From assembly GCF_041886205.1 (NCBI RefSeq), contig NZ_CP169029.1: a stretch of DNA of 64,000 nt; one strand, 5' to 3'. The notes below the pieces were generated by a model. The model was given only the letters and a program-made list of their open reading frames with translations, had not been told where the DNA came from and made no database searches. Both the position numbers and the translations under genes were made by a program. Source of the DNA: Escherichia coli. GTDB lineage: Bacteria; Pseudomonadota; Gammaproteobacteria; Enterobacterales; Enterobacteriaceae. This document shows, one piece after another, positions 1 to 13,834 of this stretch (positions are counted from its first letter, which is position 1; each line of letters starts with the position of its first letter).

Positions 1-1000
1 CGACAAAGGGTTCGCGCACGCCATTCCAGTCAAATGAACTGTTGAGGATCGCTTCGGCAGTGTCACCATTGGGATATTGATCGGTCCAGTGGCGTTGTCC
101 CTGGAAGCCCGCAGCGATGGCGTTGTAGCCAAGTGATTCTTCCACGCGACCAATATCGGCCAGTTTGCTGTTGCCTTGCATCATGTCGCGGATACACATC
201 GCCATCAGTAAACTTTCGCGCAGAACTGCGCGGCTTTGCTCGGCATTGCGTTGATACTGTTTGTTATTTTCATCTTCGCCGTAGCGGAAGTTTTTATCAG
301 CCCAGGCCAGCGCCATTTCCAGTTCGGCTTCGTCGTAAATCTTCTGATCGATACGGCGACGCAGTTCGGTCATATCCACCGCCTGGACTTTCATTCCCAG
401 CCAGGATTCAAAGAAGTTGTGATCAACGATGGAACCAGCGATACCCATCGAAACGCCGCCCAGCGACAGATAGCTTTTACCTTTCATGCTGGCGACTGCC
501 AAACCGGCGCGGGCAAAGCGCAGCAGTTTTTCTTCAACATCGGCTGGAATCGATGTGTCATCGGCATCCTGAACGTCATGACCGTAAATGGAGAATGCCG
601 GGATGCCTTTCTGGCTGTGAGCTGCCAGAGCCGCTGCCAGGTAAACAGCGCCGGGACGTTCAGTGCCGTTAAAGCCCCAAATGGCTTTCGGGCGGGTTGG
701 ATCCATGTCGATGGTTTCACTGCCATAGCACCAGCAAGGCGTTACCGTAATGGTGAGGCCTACATTCTGGCTGCTGAATTTTTCTTCGCAAGCAGCGGCT
801 TCAGCCATACCCGCGATACAGGTATCGGAAATGACACACTCGACGGCAGCTCCGCAGGCATGGCGCAGTTTCTCGGTCAGCAGTGTGGCCGTGGCTTTCG
901 CCATATTCATTGTTTGTTCTTCAAGCGACTCACGAACACCCATGCGACGACCGTCAATAACCGGGCGGATACCAATTTTCGGTAACGTATTAATTTTCAT
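1..1000 (-). CDS. fucI: L-fucose isomerase, 5' part only (gene continues beyond window start)
   Basis: Reverse-complement translation from ATG at 1000 gives [33 protein letters not shown]..., matching FucI; GAGG RBS upstream; no in-frame stop before window edge. Confidence 0.85.
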
Positions 1001-1082
1001 CAGGATTCCTCATCTCGCTTTATTGGCGCTCTGCTAAGGCGGAGAAAGGAAACCACCGAAGCAGTAGTATTGGTCATTATTT

Positions 1083-1098
1083 GCTAACTCGAGTTAGC
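1083..1098. promoter_or_regulatory. Perfect 16-bp palindrome GCTAACTCGAGTTAGC, candidate operator (copy 1)
   Basis: Self-complementary 16-mer in the fucI / ABC-transporter divergent intergenic region; identical copy at 1322-1337. Confidence 0.35.
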
Positions 1099-1321
1099 TT
1101 AGGTTTGTAGGCTTTTTATGCACAACTTTTTTGTTGTTGAAATGTGAGGGGCTTCACGAGAAGTGGTTAAAATACGATCTCTGTCAAATTATTATTTAGC
1201 GGGAGAAAAATAAATTTTACGTATAATCATATGGTTATTAGATTTTAATGGTTATGCATCACAGTTTTAACTCAAATGATTTGGCTAATTTGTATACCTA
1301 AAATAGCTTTAAAAGGCGATC

Positions 1322-1337
1322 GCTAACTCGAGTTAGC
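1322..1337. promoter_or_regulatory. Perfect 16-bp palindrome GCTAACTCGAGTTAGC, candidate operator (copy 2)
   Basis: Identical to 1083-1098; about 130 bp upstream of the ABC ATPase start. Confidence 0.35.
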
Positions 1338-1469
1338 AAAATGCGAAGAATAGATTGATGCGATGAATATTTATTCAAAGGTTATTCGTATCACAGTGGA
1401 GATGGCTTTAGTAGCGACGTTTATGCCGTACTTCACATTTTCAGTTTCTGATTATTGAGGAAAGCTGCA

Positions 1470-2969
1470 ATGTCCGAAACATTTTTGCAAATGAAGCATA
1501 TCACCAAACGCTTTCCTGGAGTGTTGGCGCTTAATGACGTGCAATTTTCCCTACGCCGGGGCGAGGTTCATGCATTATTAGGTGAAAATGGTGCAGGAAA
1601 ATCTACCTTAATGAAAATTTTGTCGGGGGTTTATCAACCTGATGAAGGCGAAATAATTTTTGAAGATAAACCAGTCTCATTTTCTGATCCGTTAAGTGCG
1701 CAAAACGTAGGTATTACTATTATTCACCAGGAATTTAATTTATTTCCCGAGCTTACAGTAGAAGAAAATATTTTTATCGGCAGGGAGTTTTGTAAAAAAA
1801 ATCGCTGGCGTCTGGATGAAAAACAGCAACGCCAGGCGACGATTGAAATTTTGCAAAAATTAAATTTGGCGATCAAACCAGATACTCTGGTTGCCGACCT
1901 TACGGTAGCTCAGCAGCAGATGGTAGAAATTGCCAAGGCCATTTCAGTTAACGCCAGGATTCTCATTATGGATGAACCTACTGCGGCGTTAACAGAAACT
2001 GAAATTGAAAGCTTATTTCGCGTCACCCGGTTATTGAAAGAGCAGGGGACCGGCATTGTTTATATCTCCCACCGTCTGGAAGAGTTGGCGCTAATTGCCG
2101 ACCGTGCGACTGTAATGCGTGATGGTCAGTACATCAGCACGGTGGATTATGAGTGCGTAAAAATCAGCGATCTGATTGCCATGATGGTTGGTCGCGATTT
2201 AGGGAATATCTATCCCCGCCGCGAGGCCTTGCAGCAGCGGATTCCGGTTCTGGAGGTAAACGGACTGACGCGCAAAGGCGTCCTGAACGATATTAATTTT
2301 ACGCTTTATCGTGGCGAGATCCTCGGCTTTGCCGGACTGATGGGCGCGGGGCGTACTGAACTTGCGCGTGCGATTTTTGGTGCGGATTCTATTGACAGCG
2401 GAACGCTAAAATTAAATGGTAAGGAAACCGTTATTAAAGATATTTCGGATGCTATTCAGCAGGGAATTAGTTACCTGACGGAAGACCGCAAAAAAGAAGG
2501 GCTGGCGCTGAATTTATCTGTTGAACGAAATATTATGTTAGGAAACTACCCTGAATATTCCGATCGTTTTGGGAATGTCGATTCGCGTCGTTGCCAACAA
2601 ACCAGTGAGGAACAGGTAAAAGCGTTAAGGATTAAAACGCCAAATCTTGAACAGGCGGCATTAAATCTAAGTGGAGGAAACCAGCAGAAAATTATAATTG
2701 CACGTTGGGTGTGTAAAGATACTGATATTTTAATCTTCGATGAACCCACTCGCGGCATTGATGTTGGCGCCAAACTGGAAATCTATGAGTTAATGAATCG
2801 CCTGGTGGCAAAAGGGAAATCAATCATCATGATCTCCTCTGAATTGCCTGAGGTGTTAGGAATGTGCGACCGTATTTTAGTGATGCGCAGTGGTCGAATT
2901 ACCGGCGAACTTAGCGCAAAAGAAGCGACACAAGAAAAAATTATGCAATACGCGACGTTAGAGGATTAA
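1470..2969 (+). CDS. Sugar ABC transporter ATP-binding protein, two fused ABC domains (RbsA/XylG-like)
   Basis: ORF with Walker A GENGAGKST and second ABC domain; ATG 1470 with GAGG RBS (ORF track starts at TTG 1455). Confidence 0.85.
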   Translation: MSETFLQMKHITKRFPGVLALNDVQFSLRRGEVHALLGENGAGKSTLMKILSGVYQPDEGEIIFEDKPVSFSDPLSAQNVGITIIHQEFNLFPELTVEENIFIGREFCKKNRWRLDEKQQRQATIEILQKLNLAIKPDTLVADLTVAQQQMVEIAKAISVNARILIMDEPTAALTETEIESLFRVTRLLKEQGTGIVYISHRLEELALIADRATVMRDGQYISTVDYECVKISDLIAMMVGRDLGNIYPRREALQQRIPVLEVNGLTRKGVLNDINFTLYRGEILGFAGLMGAGRTELARAIFGADSIDSGTLKLNGKETVIKDISDAIQQGISYLTEDRKKEGLALNLSVERNIMLGNYPEYSDRFGNVDSRRCQQTSEEQVKALRIKTPNLEQAALNLSGGNQQKIIIARWVCKDTDILIFDEPTRGIDVGAKLEIYELMNRLVAKGKSIIMISSELPEVLGMCDRILVMRSGRITGELSAKEATQEKIMQYATLED

Positions 2970-2972
2970 ATT

Positions 2973-3956
2973 ATGACTATCTCTGTAACCTCTCCAGACA
3001 GTAATAATAAGAAAATAAAGATAAATAAAGAACTTTTGATGCGTCTTGCGCCTCTTTTTAGCTTAATTATATTAGTGCTGTTTTTTAGTTTCAGCTCTCC
3101 CTTTTTCTTTAATACCGAAAATATCATGACGATTGCTCTGCAAACGTCGGTTATCGGCATTATGGCCATTGGGGTAACTTTCGTCATTATTACCGCGGGC
3201 ATCGATCTTTCATTGGGCTCCGTGGTGGCTTTTTCTGGTGTCGCCGTGGGGATTTGCGCCACACTGGGCCTGCCGCTGCCAGTGTGTATTATTGCCGGTG
3301 TTTTAGCCGGTGGAATGTGCGGCTATGTGAATGGTTTGTTGGTCACTAAAATGACCATTCCACCATTTATCGCTACCTTGGGCCTGATGATGTCCGTCAG
3401 AGGTATCAATATGGTGATGACCGACGGGCGCGCCATCTATTTTGCCGATTACCCGATGTTCAAAACGCTCGCTCAGGGACGCTTATTTGATGTGCTGCCT
3501 TATCCTGTTTTCTACCTTGTCATTGTAGCGCTTGTCGGCGCTTACATCCTGAAGAAAACCGTCATTGGTCGCTATGTCTATGCCGTAGGCAGTAATGAAG
3601 TTGCTGCTCATCTTTCTGGTATTAAAGTTCAGCGCGTGAAAATTTTCGTCTATGCCTTCTGTGGATTATTAACGGGGATTGCAGGTGTCATTCTGGCATC
3701 TCGTCTCAACTCCGGACAACCGACGGTAGGTGTGGGTTATGAACTGGAAGCTATTGCCGCGGTAGTGATTGGCGGAACCAGCTTAATGGGCGGTATTGGC
3801 ACTATTGGCGGCACAATCATTGGCGCTTTCATTATGAGTGTACTGAAAAATGGCCTCAATTTAATGGGCGTCTCCCAGTTCTGGCAAATGGTCGCGATGG
3901 GCGTCGTTGTGGTCGCTGCCGTTTACCTCGATACATTACGCAAAAAGATTCGTTGA
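2973..3956 (+). CDS. Sugar ABC transporter permease (RbsC-like)
   Basis: 327-aa hydrophobic multi-TM protein; ATG 4 nt after ATPase stop; GAGGA RBS. Confidence 0.85.
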   Translation: MTISVTSPDSNNKKIKINKELLMRLAPLFSLIILVLFFSFSSPFFFNTENIMTIALQTSVIGIMAIGVTFVIITAGIDLSLGSVVAFSGVAVGICATLGLPLPVCIIAGVLAGGMCGYVNGLLVTKMTIPPFIATLGLMMSVRGINMVMTDGRAIYFADYPMFKTLAQGRLFDVLPYPVFYLVIVALVGAYILKKTVIGRYVYAVGSNEVAAHLSGIKVQRVKIFVYAFCGLLTGIAGVILASRLNSGQPTVGVGYELEAIAAVVIGGTSLMGGIGTIGGTIIGAFIMSVLKNGLNLMGVSQFWQMVAMGVVVVAAVYLDTLRKKIR

Positions 3957-4029
3957 CTTAGGCTCCCTGTTTTATCGGGAAACAACTGCCCTGACGTTAA
4001 GGGTGATTCACTCAGAACGGAGTACAACA

Positions 4030-4980
4030 ATGAAAACCAGGCATTTTATCTATGCGTTATCTCTGCTGGCTTGCGTAAGTTCCAGCGCACTGGCGAAGGA
4101 TTTAAATCTTCCGGTTGTTAGTAAAGGTTTCCAACATGAATTCTGGCAAACCGTAAAAATGGGGACTGAAGCTGCGGCTAAAGAGTTGGGGGATAAAACC
4201 AGCTATGTTGGCCCGGCTGATGAAACGCAAATAGCCGAGCAAATTCAGTTAGTCGAAAATGCGATGGCGCAGAAACCGAATGGCTTGCTTCTGGCAGCCC
4301 TCGACGCGAATGCGCTCGCCCCACTGGTAGAAACGGCAAATTCACGCGGTATCAAAGTGGTGACCTTTGATTCAGGCATCAATTCAGACATTCCGGTGAG
4401 TTTTGTCGCCACCAATAACCGTAAAGCAGGTGCTCAGGCAGCTGATGCCTTAGCCTCGCAGGTAAATAATAAAGGGAAAGTTGGGATTATCGCGCACGTT
4501 GCAGGAACATCTTCCGCTATTGAACGCTCGGAAGGCTTCATGGAGCGTATGAAAGAAAAATATCCTGACATTAAAGTCTTACCCGTTCAGTACAGCGATG
4601 GTGACCCGCAAAAAGCGATGGATAAAACTATCGATATGATTCAGGCCAATCCCGATCTTGCTGGGATCTATGGCACCAATGAAGGTTCAACGCTCGGGGT
4701 GGCGAATGCCATTGATAGCCAGAATCTGAAAGGTAAGGTGAAGGTCATTGGTTTTGATAGTACGGAAGCGATTATTAACTTCCTGAAGAACGGCGTCATT
4801 CAGGGCTTTGTTGTTCAGGATGCATACCAGATTGGCTATCAAGGGATCAAAACGTTGAACGCGGCCCTTTCGGGGCAAGCCGTTGAAAAAGAGATCGATA
4901 TTCCCGTGAAATTTGTTAATGCCGAGAATATTAACACGCCAGAAATCGACAAACTCCTGCACCCATTCGGTAAGAAATAA
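4030..4980 (+). CDS. Periplasmic sugar-binding protein of ABC transporter (RbsB-like)
   Basis: Signal peptide MKTRHFIYALSLLACVSSSALA then PBP-like domain; ATG 4030 with GGAG RBS (ORF track start 3907 is an upstream extension). Confidence 0.8.
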   Translation: MKTRHFIYALSLLACVSSSALAKDLNLPVVSKGFQHEFWQTVKMGTEAAAKELGDKTSYVGPADETQIAEQIQLVENAMAQKPNGLLLAALDANALAPLVETANSRGIKVVTFDSGINSDIPVSFVATNNRKAGAQAADALASQVNNKGKVGIIAHVAGTSSAIERSEGFMERMKEKYPDIKVLPVQYSDGDPQKAMDKTIDMIQANPDLAGIYGTNEGSTLGVANAIDSQNLKGKVKVIGFDSTEAIINFLKNGVIQGFVVQDAYQIGYQGIKTLNAALSGQAVEKEIDIPVKFVNAENINTPEIDKLLHPFGKK

Positions 4981-5032
4981 AAAATTGGGGATGAATTTTC
5001 ATCCCCGTTATCTCCAGCGTCAGGGAGGCTTT

Positions 5033-6613
5033 ATGCACAACGGTTATTTTCTCGGTGTCGATGTCGGATCGGCCAGTGTCAGGGCAGGCGTTTACAGTGC
5101 CAGTGGCCACAGGCTGGCATTCGCTACTGCGCCCGTCTCCCAGTTTCGCCCTGGCGGCGAGCGTGTCGAACAGTCTTCGGCAGAGATCTGGCAACAAGTT
5201 TGTAAAACGGTGAAAGAGGCGACAGCTTTGGCAGGCATCCCCATTTCCGCAATTCGCTCACTGGGTTTTGACGCTACCTGCTCGCTGGTTGTTCTTGATG
5301 AACAAGGCCAGGGTTTAGCGGTTTCGTCCGGTGGATCTGCGAATCACGACATTATTATGTGGATGGATCATCGTGCAACTGTCGAGACGGCGCAGATTAA
5401 CGCAATGAAGGATCCCGCATTGCGCTACGTTGGCGGCGAAGTGAGCGTCGAGATGGAGTTACCAAAGTTACGTTGGTTGAAGACGCATCTACCGCAAACC
5501 TGGCAGGCCGCTCATCGCTTTTTCGATCTGGCGGATTTTCTGGTCTGGAAAGCAACAGGGCGAGACGTCGCGGGATTATGCACGCTAACGTGTAAATGGA
5601 ATTATCTAGCTCATGAGCAACGCTTTAGCCATAGCTTACTGGAATCGATAGACCTGACCGATATGCTTGAAAGAATTCCTGCCAACATTCTTCCGCCTGG
5701 CGCTGCCGTGGGAACGTTAACCGCCACAGCTGCTGAAGAGTTAGGATTAACGACTAATGTTATCGTGGCCAGTGGCTTGATTGATGCCCATGCCGGTGGC
5801 GTGGCGCTGGCTGGCGCTCACCCATCAGGAACGCTGGCATTGATAAGCGGAACGTCGAACTGCCATATGCTGTGTAGTGAAAAAGAGATATTCACCCCTG
5901 GCGTCTGGGGGCCATACTGGTCGGCCATGTTGCCAAATTACTGGCTAACCGAAGGCGGGCAAAGCGCCGCAGGGGCGCTGGTGGAGTGGACGCTTCAGGA
6001 GTCAGGGGCAAGCGCAAATCTTTTTCACAAGGCGCAGCAACGCGGATGTCATCCGATTCAACTGATTAATGAATGGGTAGCAGCCCTTGAAGCTAACGAG
6101 TCAGAACCCACACGAAATTTACATGTGCTTGCCGATCATCACGGCAACCGTTCGCCACGAGCGCGGCCCGATGCCAGAGGCAGTGTTTATGGCTTAACAC
6201 TGGAGCGTGGTGAAAATCAGCTCGCGCGACTTTATCTTGCGACTTTACAGGCAATAGCCTTTGGCACCAGACATATTATTGAAACTCTGCGGGAAAATGG
6301 GCATACCATTACCCGATTAACATTATGTGGTGGTGCAACGCACAACCCTTTATGGCTACGCGAATATGCAGACGTGACAGGTTGCGATATCCACCTGATG
6401 CAAGAAGAAGATGCCGTTACGTTGGGCGCAGCAATTAGCGGCGCTGTTGCCAGCGGAGCATGGGGGGATTTTACATCTGCGTGTAAAGCAATGGTTGAAG
6501 CCGGAGAGATTATTCAGGTAAATCCACAACGCCGTGAATTTTTAGAGCGTAAATACCGGGTTTACCTGACGCTTTGGGAGCAACAACAGGCGGTTAACCA
6601 ACTGATGCAATAA
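5033..6613 (+). CDS. FGGY-family carbohydrate kinase (pentulose/ribulokinase-like)
   Basis: N-terminal YFLGVDVGSASVRAGV glycine-rich kinase motif and C-terminal LCGGATHNPLW motif typical of FGGY kinases; ATG 5033 with GGGAGG RBS. Confidence 0.8.
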   Translation: MHNGYFLGVDVGSASVRAGVYSASGHRLAFATAPVSQFRPGGERVEQSSAEIWQQVCKTVKEATALAGIPISAIRSLGFDATCSLVVLDEQGQGLAVSSGGSANHDIIMWMDHRATVETAQINAMKDPALRYVGGEVSVEMELPKLRWLKTHLPQTWQAAHRFFDLADFLVWKATGRDVAGLCTLTCKWNYLAHEQRFSHSLLESIDLTDMLERIPANILPPGAAVGTLTATAAEELGLTTNVIVASGLIDAHAGGVALAGAHPSGTLALISGTSNCHMLCSEKEIFTPGVWGPYWSAMLPNYWLTEGGQSAAGALVEWTLQESGASANLFHKAQQRGCHPIQLINEWVAALEANESEPTRNLHVLADHHGNRSPRARPDARGSVYGLTLERGENQLARLYLATLQAIAFGTRHIIETLRENGHTITRLTLCGGATHNPLWLREYADVTGCDIHLMQEEDAVTLGAAISGAVASGAWGDFTSACKAMVEAGEIIQVNPQRREFLERKYRVYLTLWEQQQAVNQLMQ

Positions 6614-6677
6614 GACAAAAGTTGAAAATACTTTTATGATTGTGATTTGACGTCTGGATGTTAACTGGGAAATACCT

Positions 6678-7676
6678 ATGGCTAAAACAGTAGAGCAGAT
6701 AGCCAGCGACCTGAATTTATCGGTTACGACCGTGCGACTGGTGCTAAATGGAAAAGCGGAACAATATCGAATCAGCGTCAAAACCCAAACGCGTATCAAT
6801 GAATATGTTGAACGCTATGGTTATATCATTAATCATTCCGCTCGCAGCCTTAAGCTTAACAAAACTGATACATTAGGGTTGATTGTTCCCAACATATCCA
6901 ACGTCTTTTTTGCTACGCTGGCAGAAAAACTCGAACAACGCTGTCGACGTTCCGGATATCAACTTACAATCAGTTGCACTTATGATGATGTTGACTATGA
7001 AAATAAATTGACGAAAGCATTTATCGCACGAAATGTAGATGGTCTTTTTATTGTTCCTTCGACGCTGGAAAATCAGCAGCATCATTTACGCAAAATTCGT
7101 AAGCCCATGGTTTTACTCGATCGTGATTTTAAATATACCGATAACGCATTGGTAGAGAGTAATAATATTTCTGGCGGAGAAAAGCTGACGCAAAATATTC
7201 TTGAGGCCGGGCAGACTCCAGTATGGTTTTTGCTGGGAGATGCCGGTTTGCCGAGTATCAGCGATCGTCTGACAGGTTATTTGAATGCGTTGGCAAAAAA
7301 AGGGATTACCCATCGCGATTGGGTGCGGGAAGGTCCGGTAAATACTCCGGAAGGCGGCTATGTCATTATGGAAAAACTCATTGAAGAGCAGGGATGTCCG
7401 CAGGCATTTATCGCCTCGTCTTTGCCTGTGCTTGAAGGCGCTGTCCGCGCGATTCGCGACCGTCTTGGCGCTGTACCGCCAGAAATCAATATTGGCACTT
7501 TCGATGAACATCCTATGCTGGGATTTCTCGCCAACAATGTCTGGTCAATGCAGCAGGATGAAAATGCCTGGGCAGAAAAAGCGTTCGAAATGATGTTAAG
7601 CGCGATCGAAGAAAGACCAGTCAAAAAAACAGTTAAAGTAGAAATGAAATTAATTAAGCGCATAAGAAAAAAATAA
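6678..7676 (+). CDS. LacI-family transcriptional regulator
   Basis: N-terminal HTH (TVEQIASDLNLSVTTVRLVLNG) plus periplasmic-binding-like sugar domain; Lys-rich C-terminal tail. Confidence 0.85.
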   Translation: MAKTVEQIASDLNLSVTTVRLVLNGKAEQYRISVKTQTRINEYVERYGYIINHSARSLKLNKTDTLGLIVPNISNVFFATLAEKLEQRCRRSGYQLTISCTYDDVDYENKLTKAFIARNVDGLFIVPSTLENQQHHLRKIRKPMVLLDRDFKYTDNALVESNNISGGEKLTQNILEAGQTPVWFLLGDAGLPSISDRLTGYLNALAKKGITHRDWVREGPVNTPEGGYVIMEKLIEEQGCPQAFIASSLPVLEGAVRAIRDRLGAVPPEINIGTFDEHPMLGFLANNVWSMQQDENAWAEKAFEMMLSAIEERPVKKTVKVEMKLIKRIRKK

Positions 7677-7808
7677 TAATCGCCAAAAGATATCAGGCTA
7701 CTGAACAATGATATTCAGTGGCCTCCCCTTACTAAAAATAACCCCGTCTTCATTTGCGGTGCTGTTTTACGCAACAAGGCGAGCTGAAACTGTATCTGGA
7801 GAATAGAA

Positions 7809-8456
7809 ATGGAAAGAACACGTTTATCCCGTGAAATAATTGAAACCTGTCTGGAAATGACGCGCCTTGGGTTAAATCAGGGGACAGCGGGGAATGTCAG
7901 CACACGTTTTGAAAACGGCATGTTGATTACTCCCAGCGGTATTCCTTATGAAAGAATGACGGAGAATATGATTGTCTATGTTGATGGCAACGGCAAATAC
8001 GAAGAAGGTAAGATTCCTTCCAGCGAGTGGCGTTTCCATATGGCAGCCTATCAAAGCAGACCGGATGCCAACGCGGTTGTTCACAATCATGCCGTTCATT
8101 GCACGGCAGTTTCCATTCTTAACCGACCGATCCCCGCTATTCACTACATGATTGCGGCGGCGGGCGGTAATTCTATTCCTTGCGCGCCTTATGCGACCTT
8201 TGGAACACGTGAACTTTCTGAACATGTTGCGCTGGCTCTCAAAAATCGTAAGGCAACTTTGTTACAACATCATGGGCTTATCGCTTGTGAGGTGAATCTG
8301 GAAAAAGCGTTATGGCTGGCGCATGAAGTTGAAGTGCTGGCGCAACTTTACCTGACGACCCTGGCGATTACGGACCCGGTGCCAGTGCTGAGCGATGAAG
8401 AGATTGCCGTAGTGCTGGAGAAATTCAAAACCTATGGGTTACGGATTGAAGAGTAA
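7809..8456 (+). CDS. fucA: L-fuculose-1-phosphate aldolase, N-terminal third divergent from the K-12 form
   Basis: 215-aa class II aldolase; C-terminal two-thirds matches K-12 FucA as I recall it, first ~68 residues carry many substitutions. Confidence 0.9.
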   Translation: MERTRLSREIIETCLEMTRLGLNQGTAGNVSTRFENGMLITPSGIPYERMTENMIVYVDGNGKYEEGKIPSSEWRFHMAAYQSRPDANAVVHNHAVHCTAVSILNRPIPAIHYMIAAAGGNSIPCAPYATFGTRELSEHVALALKNRKATLLQHHGLIACEVNLEKALWLAHEVEVLAQLYLTTLAITDPVPVLSDEEIAVVLEKFKTYGLRIEE

Positions 8457-8483: not shown

Positions 8484-9632
8484 ATGGCTAACAGAATGAT
8501 TCTGAACGAAACGGCATGGTTTGGTCGGGGTGCTGTTGGGGCTTTAACCGATGAGGTGAAACGCCGTGGTTATCAGAAGGCGCTGATCGTCACCGATAAA
8601 ACGCTGGTGCAATGCGGCGTGGTGGCGAAAGTGACCGATAAGATGGATGCGGCAGGGCTGGCATGGGCGATTTACGACGGCGTAGTGCCCAACCCAACAA
8701 TTACTGTCGTCAAAGAAGGGCTCGGTGTATTCCAGAATAGCGGCGCGGATTACCTGATTGCTATTGGTGGTGGTTCTCCACAGGATACTTGTAAAGCGAT
8801 TGGTATTATCAGCAACAACCCGGAATTTGCCGATGTGCGTAGCCTGGAAGGACTTTCCCCGACCAATAAACCCAGTGTACCGATTCTGGCAATTCCCACC
8901 ACAGCAGGCACTGCGGCAGAAGTGACCATTAACTACGTGATCACTGACGAAGAAAAACGGCGCAAGTTTGTTTGCGTTGATCCGCATGATATCCCGCAGG
9001 TGGCGTTTATTGACGCTGACATGATGGATGGTATGCCTCCAGCGCTGAAAGCTGCGACGGGTGTCGATGCGCTCACTCATGCTATTGAGGGGTATATTAC
9101 CCGTGGCGCGTGGGCGCTAACCGATGCGCTGCACATTAAAGCGATTGAAATCATTGCTGGGGCGCTGCGAGGATCGGTTGCTGGTGATAAGGATGCCGGA
9201 GAAGAAATGGCGCTCGGGCAGTATGTTGCGGGTATGGGCTTCTCGAATGTTGGCTTAGGGTTGGTGCATGGTATGGCGCATCCACTGGGCGCGTTTTACA
9301 ACACTCCACACGGTGTTGCGAACGCCATCCTGTTACCGCATGTCATGCGCTATAACGCTGACTTTACCGGTGAGAAGTACCGCGATATCGCGCGCGTTAT
9401 GGGCGTGAAAGTGGAAGGTATGAGCCTGGAAGAGGCGCGTAATGCCGCTGTTGAAGCGGTGTTTGCTCTCAACCGTGATGTCGGTATTCCGCCACATTTG
9501 CGTGATGTTGGGGTACGCAAGGAAGACATTCCGGCACTGGCGCAGGCGGCACTGGATGATGTTTGTACCGGTGGCAACCCGCGTGAAGCAACGCTTGAGG
9601 ATATTGTAGAGCTTTACCATACCGCCTGGTAA
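8484..9632 (+). CDS. fucO: Lactaldehyde reductase (L-1,2-propanediol oxidoreductase)
   Basis: MANRMILNETAWFGRGAVGAL... iron-containing alcohol dehydrogenase; second ATG chosen to give the 382-aa form. Confidence 0.93.
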   Translation: MANRMILNETAWFGRGAVGALTDEVKRRGYQKALIVTDKTLVQCGVVAKVTDKMDAAGLAWAIYDGVVPNPTITVVKEGLGVFQNSGADYLIAIGGGSPQDTCKAIGIISNNPEFADVRSLEGLSPTNKPSVPILAIPTTAGTAAEVTINYVITDEEKRRKFVCVDPHDIPQVAFIDADMMDGMPPALKAATGVDALTHAIEGYITRGAWALTDALHIKAIEIIAGALRGSVAGDKDAGEEMALGQYVAGMGFSNVGLGLVHGMAHPLGAFYNTPHGVANAILLPHVMRYNADFTGEKYRDIARVMGVKVEGMSLEEARNAAVEAVFALNRDVGIPPHLRDVGVRKEDIPALAQAALDDVCTGGNPREATLEDIVELYHTAW

Positions 9633-10603: not shown

Positions 10604-11971
10604 TTAATCGCAGGCAACGATCTTCATTGCCAGGCCGCCGCGAGAGGTTTCGCGGTACTTGGCGTTCATATCTTTACCTGTTTCGTACATGGTTTCGATA
10701 ACTTTATCGAGGCAGACGCGCGGCTCGCTGGTACGGCGCAGCGCCATACGTGCGGCGTTCACCGCTTTTACTGCCGCAATGGCGTTACGCTCGATGCATG
10801 GCACCTGGACCTGTCCGGCGACCGGGTCACACGTCAGACCGAGGTTGTGCTCCATGGCGATTTCCGCCGCGATGCACACCTGCGCCGGGCTTGCGCCTAA
10901 TAGTTCTGCCAGACCAGCCGCCGCCATTGAGCACGCCACGCCAACTTCACCCTGGCAACCCACTTCAGCACCAGAAATCGACGCGTTCATCTTATAAAGA
11001 GAACCAATGGCGCTGGCTACCAGCAGGTAACGAGCCAGTGAGTTAGCGTTCACTTCGCGGATAAACTTATCGTAGTACGCCAGCACAGCCGGGATAATCC
11101 CGCACGCACCGTTAGTCGGCGCAGTCACCACGCGACCGCCAGCGGCGTTCTCTTCGTTCACTGCCAGTGCAAACATGTTGATCCAGTCAACAACCGCCAT
11201 CGGGTCAGTGGTGGTTTTATCCTGGCTGACCAGCATCCGGCGTAGTGCCGCAGCACGGCGTGGAACGCGCAGTTTGCCAGGCAACACGCCTTCGGTGGAA
11301 ATACCGCGCTCAATACCGCCACGCATGACTTCCCAGACGTTCGCCAGGTGCTGTTCCAGCTCTTCTTTGCTGTGCAGCGCCAGCTCGTTTTTCATCATCA
11401 GGCCAGAGAGTGACAGCCCGGTTTCCTGACAATGTTTTTGCAGATCGGCTGCTGAACTGTACGGATAAGGAACTTCAACCGGTGCGCTATCCTGCTGGCC
11501 AAAATGCTCTTCATCAACGATAAAGCCACCGCCAATAGAGTAGTAAGTCTGGCTGTAAACGACTTTATCGCCCGCCAGCGCGGTAATGCGCATACCGTTT
11601 TCATGCAGAGAAAGGTTGTCTGCATGGAAGTTCATGCACTGATCAACCGGGAACTCCACTTCATGCTGACCGTTTGCCAGCATCAGGCGACCATGAGTAT
11701 TCACATCCTGAATAAAACCGGGGATGGAATCGATATCCACGGTATCCGGCAGGTTACCCGCCAGGCCCATAATAATGGCGATATCAGTGTGGTGGCCTTT
11801 ACCAGTCAGAGAGAGCGAGCCGTACACGTCAACCACCACGCGGGTCACGTCTTTAAGCAGGTTACGGGCAATCAGATCGTCGGTAAATTGTTTACCCGCT
11901 TTCATTGGTCCAACGGTATGAGAACTGGAAGGGCCAATGCCGATTTTGAAAATATCGAATACGCTAATCAT
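10604..11971 (-). CDS. sdaB: L-serine dehydratase 2
   Basis: 455 aa, MISVFDIFKIGIGPSSSHTVGPM...; Fe-S serine dehydratase. Confidence 0.95.
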   Translation of the reverse strand: MISVFDIFKIGIGPSSSHTVGPMKAGKQFTDDLIARNLLKDVTRVVVDVYGSLSLTGKGHHTDIAIIMGLAGNLPDTVDIDSIPGFIQDVNTHGRLMLANGQHEVEFPVDQCMNFHADNLSLHENGMRITALAGDKVVYSQTYYSIGGGFIVDEEHFGQQDSAPVEVPYPYSSAADLQKHCQETGLSLSGLMMKNELALHSKEELEQHLANVWEVMRGGIERGISTEGVLPGKLRVPRRAAALRRMLVSQDKTTTDPMAVVDWINMFALAVNEENAAGGRVVTAPTNGACGIIPAVLAYYDKFIREVNANSLARYLLVASAIGSLYKMNASISGAEVGCQGEVGVACSMAAAGLAELLGASPAQVCIAAEIAMEHNLGLTCDPVAGQVQVPCIERNAIAAVKAVNAARMALRRTSEPRVCLDKVIETMYETGKDMNAKYRETSRGGLAMKIVACD

Positions 11972-12028
11972 AGGAAATACATCGCGTTAAAACGGAGGAA
12001 GCGCCGCCCGAAAGCGGCGCGAAAGGAC

Positions 12029-13318
12029 TTAGCTGAACAGAGAGTAGAAGATTGCGGAGATTGCAATCAGACCCATCACGACAACGAATACGTTGCTGAT
12101 GTGACCGCTGTACTTACGCATTGCCGGTACTTTCTGAATTGCGTACATCGGCATCAGGAACAGGATCATCGCGATGATTGGGCCGCCCAGGGTTTCAATC
12201 ATACCCAGGATGCTCGGGTTCAGGGTGGCAACAATCCAGGTCGTTACCAGCATGAACAGCGCAGTGATACGGTTCAGCTTGTTGATTTCGATAGACTTAC
12301 CTTTACCACGCAGAGATTTAATCACCATACCGTTGAAGCCTTCACGTGCGCCCAGGTAGTGGCCGAGGAAGGATTTGGTGATAGCGATAATCGCGATAAT
12401 CGGAGCCATCCACGCGATAACCGGTGCGTTAAAGTGGTTAGCCAGGTAAGACAGAATCGAGATGTTCTGCTCTTTAGCCGCAGCCAGGTCCGCCGGAGTC
12501 AGGCTCAGTACGCAGCTGAAGACGAAGAACATTACGGTCAGCACCATCATGATGTGTGCGAATGCCAGGATCTTCGAGCATTTCTGTTCTGCCATATCGC
12601 CGTACTCTTCACGCTTCGCAACGGCGAAAGAAGAGATGATCGGAGAGTGGTTGAACGAGAACACCATTACCGGAATTGCCAGCCACAGGGTCATCCACAG
12701 ACCGTTTCCGGTTGCAGATGCAGTGTCCAGAGACAGCGTTTCCAGTGCTGCGCCGTTCCACTGCGGGATGAGGTACAGAGCCAGCAGCATCAGTACGCCA
12801 ACAAACGGGAATACCAGAATACTCATCGCTTTAACGATCATCTGCTCACCGAAGCGAACGATGGTCATCATACCCACGATCAGGATCAGCGACAGAATCG
12901 CACGCGGCGGTGGCGTCATACCCAGCTGGTGAGACATGAAGCTTTCAACGGTATTGGTGATTGCCACGCTATAAACCAGCAGGATCGGGTAGATAGCGAA
13001 GAAGTAGAGCAGGGTAATCAGTTTACCTGCGCCAATACCAAAGTGTTCTTCTACAACCTCGGTGATGTCTTCGCCCGGGTTTTTACCAGACAGTACGAAG
13101 CGAGTCAGGCCGCGGTGAGCAAAAAACGTCATCGGGAACGCAAGGATAGCCATGATGATCAGCGGGATCATACCGCCAACACCGGCGTTGATTGGCAGGA
13201 ACAGCACGCCCGCGCCGATTGCCGTGCCGTAAAGGCCCAGCATCCACATGGTGTCTGTCTTGCGCCAGGCACTACGAGAGTCTTTCGACGCAATCGTGCT
13301 GGTTTGAGTCGTTTCCAT
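12029..13318 (-). CDS. sdaC: Serine:H+ symporter
   Basis: 429-aa polytopic membrane protein upstream of sdaB. Confidence 0.95.
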
Positions 13319-13834
13319 CTATTTCTCCTGGAGGAATGCAAATAATTCAGCTTTTAGCCAGTTCAGCCCGGGAAGGTGCCTGACCGTAAAAATGAAATCT
13401 GTCTATCGGCGATGGCTTAATCATTTACCGCCGTAATAATTTGAGGGCGGAAAGATACACACAAGTTATGTATCTATCAGTGATCTTGATCCCAAATACA
13501 ATAATCTACTTGGAAGATAGATTATCCCAACGCTTTACTCTGTAAATCAAAAGTAAAAGAGAATTTAAGGGCAATATTTGCCCATTAAACGACATCTGAC
13601 TTCTTCCGGGGCGCGCAATATATGTAGGTTGAACTGAAAAAATCAATACTTTTAGTTAATCATGGCGATAATTTCTTTTTCATAGCGATAAAATACGGTT
13701 TATGAAAATAGGGAAACGTTTGCGTTGCAATATAAATTGTATGACATATTAACTATGATGATATTTGTCGCGTGAGGGTGGTAAGAAACATTTATATAAC
13801 AAATGAAATGAGTTGATGAGTAAGTGACCAAAAA

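Follow-up and report, generated by a model that had tools for sequence, protein, structure and literature searches.

Fucose is a major sugar of gut mucin, and the locus considered here decides whether Escherichia coli grows on D-arabinose without mutation and by which route it takes up fucose. In K-12-type genomes the position next to fucI is occupied by fucP; what, then, has taken that position in a genome where fucP is missing from it, and what does the change mean for sugar uptake and for control? These questions were addressed in a stretch of E. coli DNA of 64,000 nucleotides, hereafter called the window.

The arrangement is a form of the fucose locus already known from a minority of E. 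coli strains, E. coli B and C among them, and it has been described before: the L-fucose/D-arabinose cluster of E. coli B carrying darK goes back to Elsinghorst and Mortlock (1994), as cited by Cottam (2025), and a variant locus with an ABC transporter in place of fucP was reported by Saif et al. (2023). The proposals made in a preliminary description of the window are all present in this literature. What is added here to the earlier descriptions is the replacement with the loss of both promoters, the mosaic fucA, the native layout across genera, and a palindrome pair with a CRP-like site; we found no description of the regulator's operators, of the loss of both K-12 promoters or of the mosaic fucA in the accessible literature.

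Replacement of a Contiguous Segment of the fuc Locus

The gene fucI (L-fucose/D-arabinose isomerase) lies on the minus strand, starts at position 1000 and continues beyond the left edge of the window, leaving its N-terminal 333 codons (1..1000), recognized by translation and by the annotated fucI of an identical genome. On the plus strand lie, in order, genes for an ABC ATPase of 499 aa with two fused ATP-binding domains (CUT2/RbsA-like; 1470..2969) and a single RbsC-like ABC permease of 327 aa (2973..3956), both assigned from NCBIfam and annotation; a periplasmic sugar-binding protein of 316 aa with a signal peptide (4030..4980; NCBIfam, structure comparison and gene context); an FGGY-family pentulose kinase of 526 aa, darK (5033..6613; TIGR01315, identity to E. 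coli B, and Cottam, 2025); and a LacI-family regulator of 332 aa, nearest to the FruR/Cra/ScrR subfamily (6678..7676; TIGR02417, below cut-off). A spacer with two inverted repeats (7677..7808; repeat and terminator scans) leads to fucA (L-fuculose-1-phosphate aldolase; 7809..8456) and fucO (lactaldehyde reductase; 8484..9632; ORF and annotation). This is the gene order given in the preliminary description, and its statement that fucI starts here without fucP likewise holds, as tblastn found no FucP homolog in the whole 64-kb window. From this layout we infer two operons diverging from one control region of 470 bp (1001..1469, with conserved blocks in a 15-taxon alignment), the one comprising fucI-fucK-fucU-fucR and the other the genes for ABC ATPase, permease and binding protein followed by darK, lacI, fucA and fucO.

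Compared with a K-12-type strain, similarity is lost at about 985 and regained only at about 8030; the first five fucI codons therefore differ, and the first ~220 bp of fucA diverge. The latter gene is a mosaic, of the ABC-type haplotype from 7809 to about 8030, where sliding identity is 67–75%, and like K-12-type strains in the remainder, where it is 97–100%. One contiguous segment, from about 985 to 8030, is thus replaced relative to K-12-type strains: fucP has gone, together with the divergent fucPIK/fucAO control region in its entirety, the first fucI codons and the first third of fucA, and the incoming segment encodes a CUT2-type ABC importer, the predicted D-ribulokinase DarK and a LacI-family regulator. 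The new genes had been described as inserted between fucI and fucA; since the junctions lie inside these two genes, homologous replacement by an old alternative haplotype is indicated instead, and the differing segment, correctly placed up to its earlier limit of 7808, runs past it to about 8030. The claim that fucI had lost its fucP promoter context proved right and indeed understated, as fucAO has lost its promoter region as well. Both K-12 fuc promoters are removed, and no K-12 control element was found in the new intergenic regions (12-mers, at most one mismatch).

Distribution among E. coli Genomes

The 6.8 kb of extra DNA between fucA and fucI, absent in K-12, are 100% identical to one wild isolate and 99.9% identical to REL606, BL21 and E. 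coli C. Of the complete E. coli genomes, 381 have them at >98.6% identity and 2 more have a part of them (383 of 5426 in total); they fall into two sub-lineages about 1.2% apart. Of the same 5426 genomes 5039 have fucP, and the fucP form and the module together account for 5422. About 7% of sequenced E. coli carry the locus, including the workhorse strains BL21 and REL606. The preliminary description had allowed for a fucP upstream of fucI that was hidden by an assembly error; such an error or misjoin is ruled out, since the arrangement is common to 381 complete genomes and fucP and the module are mutually exclusive.

A study of E. coli B from 1994 is said to have placed fucP in that strain. 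There is no fucP in REL606, BL21 or the window, so that this placement is not borne out by the sequence, and the fucP-complementing activity in E. coli B may have been the ABC system.

The DarK Kinase and the Proposed Pathway

The kinase had been put forward as the separate D-ribulokinase known from E. coli B, whose gene maps together with the fuc genes. Compared with family profiles of NCBIfam, it reaches 531.4 bits against TIGR01315, an FGGY pentulose-kinase subfamily (curated cut-off 408.7), and stays under the curated cut-offs of AraB, XylB, GlpK, LsrK and FucK, scoring 57 bits against a cut-off of 471 in the case of the FucK family model. Its identity with FucK is 25%, over 270 residues only, and the locus does contain a second sugar kinase beside the fuc enzymes, as the preliminary description had it. 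When a large protein search was run with the kinase, all names returned were generic ones of the type “FGGY-family carbohydrate kinase.” In E. coli B no other kinase gene lies between fucA and fucI, and the fuc-locus kinase has been explicitly equated with DarK (Cottam, 2025). Sequence identity (99.9%), subfamily and published naming support the assignment of the 526-aa protein as DarK, the predicted D-ribulokinase of the E. coli B D-arabinose pathway. According to published growth data, D-arabinose supports growth of REL606 and BL21, but not of K-12; REL606 grows on it despite a fucA split by IS1, as expected if DarK bypasses the aldolase.

The replacement locus, a pathway of ABC import, FucI and DarK, and control by the LacI-type protein and CRP can be joined in one explanation, in which we have good confidence and for which substrates and effector were taken from gene context and published work. 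The ABC system would import L-fucose and its 6-demethyl analog D-arabinose, and FucI would isomerize both. The L-fuculose formed would pass through FucK, FucA and FucO as in K-12, and D-ribulose would be converted by DarK to D-ribulose-5-phosphate, which would enter the pentose phosphate pathway without FucA. Bound at two identical palindromes, the LacI-type protein would repress both operons until released by the sugar or the ketose; CRP between the palindromes would give catabolite control, and FucR would still be encoded yet no longer needed.

Control Region and LacI-Type Regulator

The control region (GC 36–38%) is unrelated to the K-12 fucP-fucA control region, with no shared 12-mer at up to one mismatch. 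Palindrome search and conservation identified two perfect copies of a 16-bp palindrome with a central CG, GCTAACTCGAGTTAGC, in the window, versus 0.15 matches expected by chance: candidate operator O1 on the fucI side (1083..1098), about 85 bp from the fucI start, and candidate operator O2 on the ABC side (1322..1337). O1 is kept with 0–2 mismatches in all 27 related loci whose DNA includes the control region, and both palindromes are present, again with 0–2 mismatches, in 25 other loci across genera, the distance between them being a constant 238–240 bp in every locus with both copies. The DNA between O1 and O2 is otherwise poorly conserved. Between them lies the CRP-like site TGTGAggggctTCACG (1143..1158), assigned to CRP by consensus only, in which both half-sites of the pattern TGTGA-N6-TCACG are invariant in the 15-taxon alignment. 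The same alignment shows a conserved block just 5' of O2, TCACA..CAAAnnnTTTGGCTAA..TAAAATAGCTTTAAA (1257..1316), which is probably the promoter of the ABC operon. A second CRP site within this block was considered and dropped because of the poor left half-site in E. coli. Scans for promoter and terminator consensus sequences were set aside; the sites they picked were other than this block, lay in unconserved DNA and were no more frequent than in shuffled sequence.

Upstream of fucA in E. coli there is no third operator within three mismatches, and the lacI-fucA spacer (7677–7808) contains neither a T-run terminator nor an operator copy. This gap measures 30–235 bp in other genera, with only the ribosome-binding site conserved, and its length of about 30 bp in Enterobacter and Lelliottia implies co-transcription.

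The regulator gives full-length matches to the LacI family and scores 236 bits against NCBIfam TIGR02417, under the cut-off of 390. It combines the traits of LacI/GalR proteins, namely an N-terminal HTH, a periplasmic-binding-protein-like domain and a candidate palindromic operator of ~16 bp with a central CG near its genes. In a tblastn survey, the palindrome was present in every locus with a homolog of the regulator whose control region was included, and absent from K-12-type loci and from Vibrio fuc loci without the regulator; in Sodalis and Acerihabitans the ABC genes are preceded by a perfect palindrome, and no LacI-type gene lies within 9 kb. Conserved palindromes at fixed spacing around a CRP-like site point to control by the LacI-type protein, which is predicted to be a repressor acting at O1 and O2.

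It could be argued that FucR is the main activator of fucIKUR and fucAO and that the LacI-type protein controls the transporter and darK only, given that fucI is induced by fucose in BL21 (Saif et al., 2023). The fucR gene is intact and encodes the same protein as in a K-12-type strain, so some function for FucR may persist. Constitutive fuc mutants of E. coli B are also reported, in work from 1988, to be constitutive for D-ribulokinase, a sign of coordinate control through whichever regulator. However, the K-12 control region at which FucR acts is absent in its entirety, O1 standing close to fucI in its place, and fucR is missing from the vicinity of the locus in E. whittamii and Huaxiibacter, both of which keep the same control region. 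Moreover, fuculose-1-phosphate, the FucR effector, is said in a 1988 abstract not to be an inducer in E. coli B; a leading role of FucR is, on this evidence, unlikely.

Control by a LacI-type repressor together with CRP might be part of a wider picture, a second and ancient design of fucose/D-arabinose regulon, as opposed to a K-12 locus with additions, in which such a repressor, sensing free sugars and acting at two operators placed at fixed distance around a CRP site, replaced FucR; in some relatives a GH172 alpha-D-arabinofuranosidase and a glycoside symporter would come under the same repressor. We take this possibility seriously and hold it tentatively. If true, it would explain the induction of E. 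coli B by D-arabinose without mutation, and the control of GH172 would imply scavenging of D-arabinofuranosides, for example mycobacterial-type arabinan; no publication of this regulatory picture was found. The predicted repressor-operator pair provides a simple, testable handle on the regulon.

Relatives and Origin of the Module

In Citrobacter, E. whittamii, Enterobacter, Buttiauxella and others, the native fuc locus has the layout seen in the window, with darK optional among the genera that have an ABC-type fuc locus. Relatives of the binding protein with at least 77% identity occur in the divergent layout fucI/ABC-(darK)-lacI-fucA in 28 species-level genomes of at least 10 genera, a count that includes two contigs ending before one end of the layout; in Sodalis, Acerihabitans, Vibrio and a Clostridiales genome, relatives at 56–77% belong to ABC-fucIKU(A) operons that lack darK.

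Several features would suit a recent genomic island, brought from another genus into a K-12-like fuc locus (“acquisitive evolution” of darK). The module is missing from 93% of E. coli genomes; the GC content of the control region, the ABC genes and lacI is 36–49%, below the value of about 53% in fucI; and darK (GC 50–55%) has a composition unlike its neighbors and is far less conserved, with amino-acid identities to Citrobacter of 79–80% versus 93–97% for the permease and the binding protein. Only darK looks like a later add-on within the module. Such an origin for the module as a whole is nevertheless decidedly unlikely: the segment is not bounded by an integrase, IS or repeats, and its junctions fall within fucI and fucA; E. 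whittamii and many Citrobacter species have the layout at an identical place in the chromosome (rlmM...xni); the nucleotide identity of the module, 87–93% to E. whittamii and 70–86% to Citrobacter, tracks that of the flanking core genes; and within E. coli the module has already separated into its two sub-lineages.

Predicted Substrates of the ABC Transporter

The transporter has the traits of the CUT2 class: its ATPase, of ~500 aa, fuses two domains, the permease is encoded by one gene, and the type I binding protein is periplasmic and has a signal peptide. The ATPase, annotated as a sugar ABC transporter ATP-binding protein, finds its best NCBIfam matches in RbsA, XylG, GguA and AraG, all under the equivalog cut-offs, and none of the ABC proteins reached the NCBIfam equivalog cut-off for any known substrate; the binding protein matches AlsB, RbsB and RhaS far under cut-off. 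The solved structures closest to the binding protein, whose structure model has a pLDDT of 90.7, are 4rxt and 4wut, which we take to hold D-arabinose and D-fucose, weak evidence at 36–37% identity. The substrate of the system was read from gene context only: in 37 loci, relatives of the binding protein with at least 56% identity have fuc genes or a fucI-like gene as neighbors. Its predicted ligands are L-fucose and D-arabinose, the two sugars for which the preliminary description had named the ABC system a candidate importer.

Among 40 clinical isolates, the three without fucP and with the ABC permease gene fermented fucose like all others, and the growth of BL21 on fucose did not exceed that of a K-12 fucP deletion mutant (Saif et al., 2023). 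The weak growth of BL21 suggests that the ABC system may be a poor fucose importer, or its cause may lie in fucA, which is broken in the B lineage; growth on fucose has been published for aldolase-positive revertants of E. coli B. In published metabolic models the inability of REL606 to use fucose is ascribed to the missing fucP, which overlooks the broken fucA beside it. That the ABC system and the kinase form a dedicated system for D-ribulose or another pentose, merely adjoining the fuc genes and without import of L-fucose, is very improbable, for although D-ribulose is the predicted kinase substrate, a D-ribulose-specific ABC-plus-D-ribulokinase locus (Rbl) exists in Citrobacter rodentium, the best family matches of the binding protein are binders of allose, ribose and rhamnose, and BL21 on fucose resembles the deletion mutant, the ABC genes accompany fucIKUA in 11 enterobacterial loci without darK and fuc genes in the operons of Sodalis, Acerihabitans, Vibrio and Clostridiales, isolates without fucP still ferment fucose (Saif et al., 2023), the fuc-locus kinase is placed in a clade and context apart from Rbl (Cottam, 2025), and no KpsF-like isomerase gene is found at the locus.

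Comparison with Known Systems

The darK locus of E. coli B (REL606, BL21) is the same locus, with 99.9% DNA identity over 6.8 kb and the same gene order, so that the published growth on D-arabinose and fucP-less use of fucose apply; the difference lies in fucA, cut by IS1 in both B strains and intact in the strain of the window. The K-12 fuc regulon shares fucI, fucK, fucU, fucR, fucA and fucO at the same chromosomal position, with flanks 96–100% identical. It has fucP and a divergent fucPIK-fucAO promoter region controlled by FucR and CRP, whereas the locus described here has neither and possesses an ABC importer plus one more kinase and one more regulator; fucA and fucO lie 3' of the new operon, and in K-12 behind their own FucR-dependent promoter. 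Knowledge of K-12 fuc regulation (FucR, PfucPIK, PfucAO) is not transferable to B-type strains because the control sequences are absent.

The Cra/FruR-ScrR branch provides the best family match of the regulator, at 236 versus 390 bits for the cut-off, and its target genes differ. The candidate operator GCTAAC-TCGA-GTTAGC resembles the Cra half-site pattern, GCTGAA-TCGA-TTCAGC, and its central CG is typical of the LacI family. DarK shares the TIGR01315 subfamily with RbtK of Klebsiella, the D-ribulokinase of the ribitol operon, and with yeast YDR109C and human FGGY; the context of RbtK is a ribitol dehydrogenase and a polyol permease, that of DarK the fuc genes and an ABC importer.

Rbl of C. 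rodentium, with which Aau of EHEC is grouped as a comparison system, likewise links a CUT2-type ABC importer to an FGGY D-ribulokinase (Cottam, 2025), an activity that is predicted for the present locus, and in both D-ribulose-5-phosphate would be the entry to central metabolism. Rbl has a KpsF-like isomerase and sits outside the fuc locus, whereas the module described here has no isomerase gene and sits inside it; the kinase clades differ according to Cottam (2025). D-ribulose is imported in Rbl, whereas in the pathway proposed here it would be made inside the cell from D-arabinose by FucI.

Gene order and boundaries of the replaced segment

The window is chromosomal DNA of E. coli, and its first 9.7 kb are 100% identical to strain wlxctx60. 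Here fucR-fucU-fucK-fucI lie on the minus strand, followed on the plus strand by an ABC ATPase, a permease, a binding protein, an FGGY kinase (5033-6613, 526 aa), a LacI-family regulator, fucA and fucO, with xni, sdaB and sdaC beyond fucO; K-12-type genomes carry fucP and a 546-bp control region in place of the five extra genes. The preliminary description had listed each gene accurately, with fucP missing, and rightly placed the extra genes between fucI and fucA, but it had called them inserted. Judged from the alignments, the segment is a replacement, not an insertion: identity to a K-12-type strain is 98-100% through fucI up to ~985 (the first five fucI codons differ), falls away throughout the segment and is regained only from ~8030. 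In fucA, identity is 67-75% over the initial ~220 bp and 97-100% thereafter, so fucA is a mosaic and the junctions fall within homologous genes; no mobility genes were found at the replaced segment.

The K-12 fucPIK and fucAO promoters are both lost together with their regulatory sites, and no 12-mer (up to one mismatch) is common to the K-12 control region and either new intergenic region. The proposal that fucI has lost its fucP promoter context was borne out, and it extends to fucAO. In the window's strain fucA is intact, as is fucR, whose product is identical to that of the K-12-type strain, so FucR may keep a residual role in the B-type locus.

Distribution in E. coli

The module, by which we mean the 6.8-kb ABC-type segment, occurs in 383 of the 5426 complete E. 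coli genomes, in full in 381 of them and always as a single chromosomal copy, and fucP occurs in 5039; the two groups make up 5422 of the 5426, so that nearly every genome has one form or the other at its fuc locus. These counts rule out an assembly error concealing a fucP gene beside fucI; the 64-kb window contains no FucP homologue, and the complete module recurs in the 381 genomes. E. coli B (REL606, BL21 and derivatives) and E. coli C carry the module at 99.9% identity, and a second sub-lineage within E. coli has it at ~98.7%. Strain F11 has a module with an additional insertion of ~870 bp. E. coli BS-04 (L061, 3530-5717) has neither fucP nor the module; the 2.2 kb separating its fucI from fucA hold a hypothetical ORF and a remnant of the lacI end (86% identical), and may reflect decay or a low-quality assembly.

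Relatives and age of the ABC-type locus

Taking one genome per species, we collected 55 loci encoding proteins related to the binding protein and mapped the neighbour genes by tblastn. Divergence of fucI from ABC, permease, binding protein, (darK), lacI and fucA is the native fuc locus layout in E. whittamii, at least 15 Citrobacter genomes, Enterobacter hormaechei, Pluralibacter, Huaxiibacter, Pseudenterobacter, Lelliottia, Buttiauxella, Atlantibacter and a Serratia; the E. whittamii and Citrobacter copies lie between rlmM and xni, the position seen in E. coli. The Huaxiibacter fuc locus (L020, 1-2400) adjoins cyoC and cyoE. Nucleotide identity of the module is 87-93% to E. whittamii and 70-86% to Citrobacter, and the flanking core genes match these values, which argues for a haplotype old in the lineage rather than a recent island. 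The kinase gene darK is missing from 11 of the ABC-type loci, where a clean gap of ~145 bp is found; its GC content is 50-55% versus 40-49%, and its conservation is far below that of its neighbours. By these features darK seems to have joined an ABC-type fucose locus later, as an optional gene.

The kinase and growth on D-arabinose

The kinase scored 531 bits against the FGGY pentulose-kinase subfamily TIGR01315 (cut-off 408.7). It stayed below the cut-offs for L-ribulokinase (scoring 277 and 216 bits), xylulokinase, glycerol kinase, LsrK (scoring 93) and FucK (scoring 57), and aligns with the genome's own FucK along part of its length, at 25% identity. In REL606 no other kinase is encoded between fucA and fucI, the interval to which darK was mapped. 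Its suggested role as the separate D-ribulokinase of E. coli B gains support from both results. Growth of REL606 is good on D-arabinose and absent on fucose, and its fucA is split by IS1; an aldolase-independent route from FucI through DarK to D-ribulose-5-phosphate fits this phenotype despite the split gene.

The transporter and its sugars

The transporter is of the ribose type (CUT2), with a fused two-domain ATPase, a single permease and a signal-peptide-bearing binding protein; it reaches the cut-off of no substrate-specific family. The binding protein has a confident predicted structure (pLDDT 90.7), and its nearest solved structures are two Agrobacterium proteins of 36-37% identity. For the substrate, gene context is the strongest evidence. 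In Sodalis, Acerihabitans, Vibrio and a Clostridiales genome, proteins related to the binding protein at 56-77% identity are encoded in ABC-fucI-fucK-fucU(-fucA) operons that lack darK. Aldolase-positive revertants of E. coli B grow on fucose, and fucose was fermented by all isolates of Saif et al. (2023), those lacking fucP included. Together these observations point to import of L-fucose by the ABC system, in line with the importer role first proposed for it.

D-arabinose, which is L-fucose minus the methyl group and also a FucI substrate, is predicted to be a natural second ligand. This is supported by an aldolase-free locus in Vibrio sp. 99-8-1 (L034, 1930-10546), in which a lacI-like gene diverges from genes for a darK-like kinase, a distant FucI-like isomerase (545 aa; PF02952, E 1.6e-5), ABC ATPase, permease and binding protein, and a fucU-like gene; the divergent promoter carries a single copy of the palindrome described below. 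It looks like a self-contained putative D-arabinose operon and has similar counterparts (L035, L037, L038); a separate fucP/fucR/ABC-fucIKUAO locus (L031) of this strain lacks the palindrome.

On fucose, BL21 did not outgrow a K-12 fucP deletion mutant (Saif et al., 2023), which says nothing on the transporter because fucA is broken in the B lineage. In the laboratory lineage IS1 cuts fucA in REL606 (L003, 12809-14233) and BL21(DE3) (L059, 9309-9749); a rearrangement in one BL21(DE3) assembly places the distal part beside ydfJ. Published metabolic models ascribe the fucose-negative phenotype of REL606 to an absent fucP transport reaction; the broken aldolase is an alternative cause. A 1994 abstract by Elsinghorst and Mortlock is said to have reported fucP in E. 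coli B; the REL606 and BL21 genomes have none, and the complementing activity may have been that of the ABC system.

The control region

The 470-bp control region holds two perfect copies of the palindrome GCTAACTCGAGTTAGC, O1 (1083-1098, fucI side) and O2 (1322-1337, ABC side), the only matches in 64 kb with up to three mismatches (0.15 expected). A further 25 loci retain both with 0-2 mismatches, and two more retain the fucI-side copy alone. The spacing of the two copies is constant (238-240 bp), the intervening DNA being mostly unconserved; positions 1170-1250 are poorly conserved in sequence with almost no indels across 15 aligned taxa, so that selection appears to act on the distance, which would agree with DNA looping or a fixed promoter geometry. 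Midway between O1 and O2, TGTGA-N6-TCACG matches the CRP consensus and is invariant in 15/15 taxa; directly beside O2 lies another conserved block, probably the ABC promoter.

Within the LacI family the regulator falls nearest the Cra/FruR branch; operators of that branch share the palindrome's shape. The palindrome is present in every surveyed locus having both regulator gene and control region, and absent from K-12-type loci and regulator-less Vibrio fuc loci. No fucR adjoins the ABC-type locus in E. whittamii (after fucU, L004 ~2200-2300) or Huaxiibacter, both of which keep the control region; in several other genera with the ABC-type locus the homology search gave no adjoining FucR match. 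Wherever fucR is absent the LacI-type gene is the sole regulator gene of the locus. The lacI-fucA gap is only ~30 bp in Enterobacter and Lelliottia, with the ribosome-binding site alone conserved. From this combination of sequence features we infer two divergent operons under a single LacI-type repressor plus CRP: the LacI-type protein would repress both the fucI side and the ABC side, with CRP adding catabolite control. In 1988 Elsinghorst and Mortlock reportedly found that free sugars, not fuculose-1-phosphate, induce in E. coli B and that D-ribulokinase and the fuc enzymes are regulated together, which would fit this model.

In the window the lacI-fucA spacer has two inverted repeats (7697-7725 and 7744-7790; ACTGAA..TTCAGT and CGTCTT..AAGGCG), neither followed by a T-run; both also occur in E. 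whittamii and several Citrobacter, are missing in the short-gap genera, and may be an inserted element or RNA structure inside the operon. Sodalis (L032, 6343) and Acerihabitans (L036, 6374) have a perfect palindrome upstream of an ABC-fucIKUR operon and no LacI-type gene within 9 kb of it; their regulator may be encoded elsewhere, perhaps beside the darK homologues of these genera.

A third palindrome occurs in Lelliottia (L022, 13778-13793) and Huaxiibacter (L020, 16168), ~100 bp upstream of an operon directly after fucA. This operon (in Lelliottia at 10949-13682, minus strand) encodes a GPH-family glycoside symporter and a protein of DUF2961 (PF11175), which is the same as glycoside hydrolase family GH172, with reported alpha-D-arabinofuranosidase and alpha-D-fructofuranosidase activities (PMC8605356, PMC10115798), and the regulon is therefore predicted to be tied to D-arabinose-containing glycans.

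Comparison with published descriptions

What this analysis adds is modest: a regulatory architecture and an evolutionary reading without counterpart in the literature open to search. Between fucA and fucI a D-arabinose cluster specific to E. coli B has been listed, with growth on D-arabinose in REL606 and BL21(DE3) and not in K-12 (Yoon, 2012; Kim, 2018), and a fucose operon "variant 2", in which an ABC transporter replaces fucP, was described in 50/1058 genomes and 3/40 clinical isolates (Saif et al., 2023). With Cottam et al. (2025), who equate the kinase with DarK, these papers make the hypothesis of the preliminary description the published view: the locus is already known, the observation is confirmed and its interpretation is supported.
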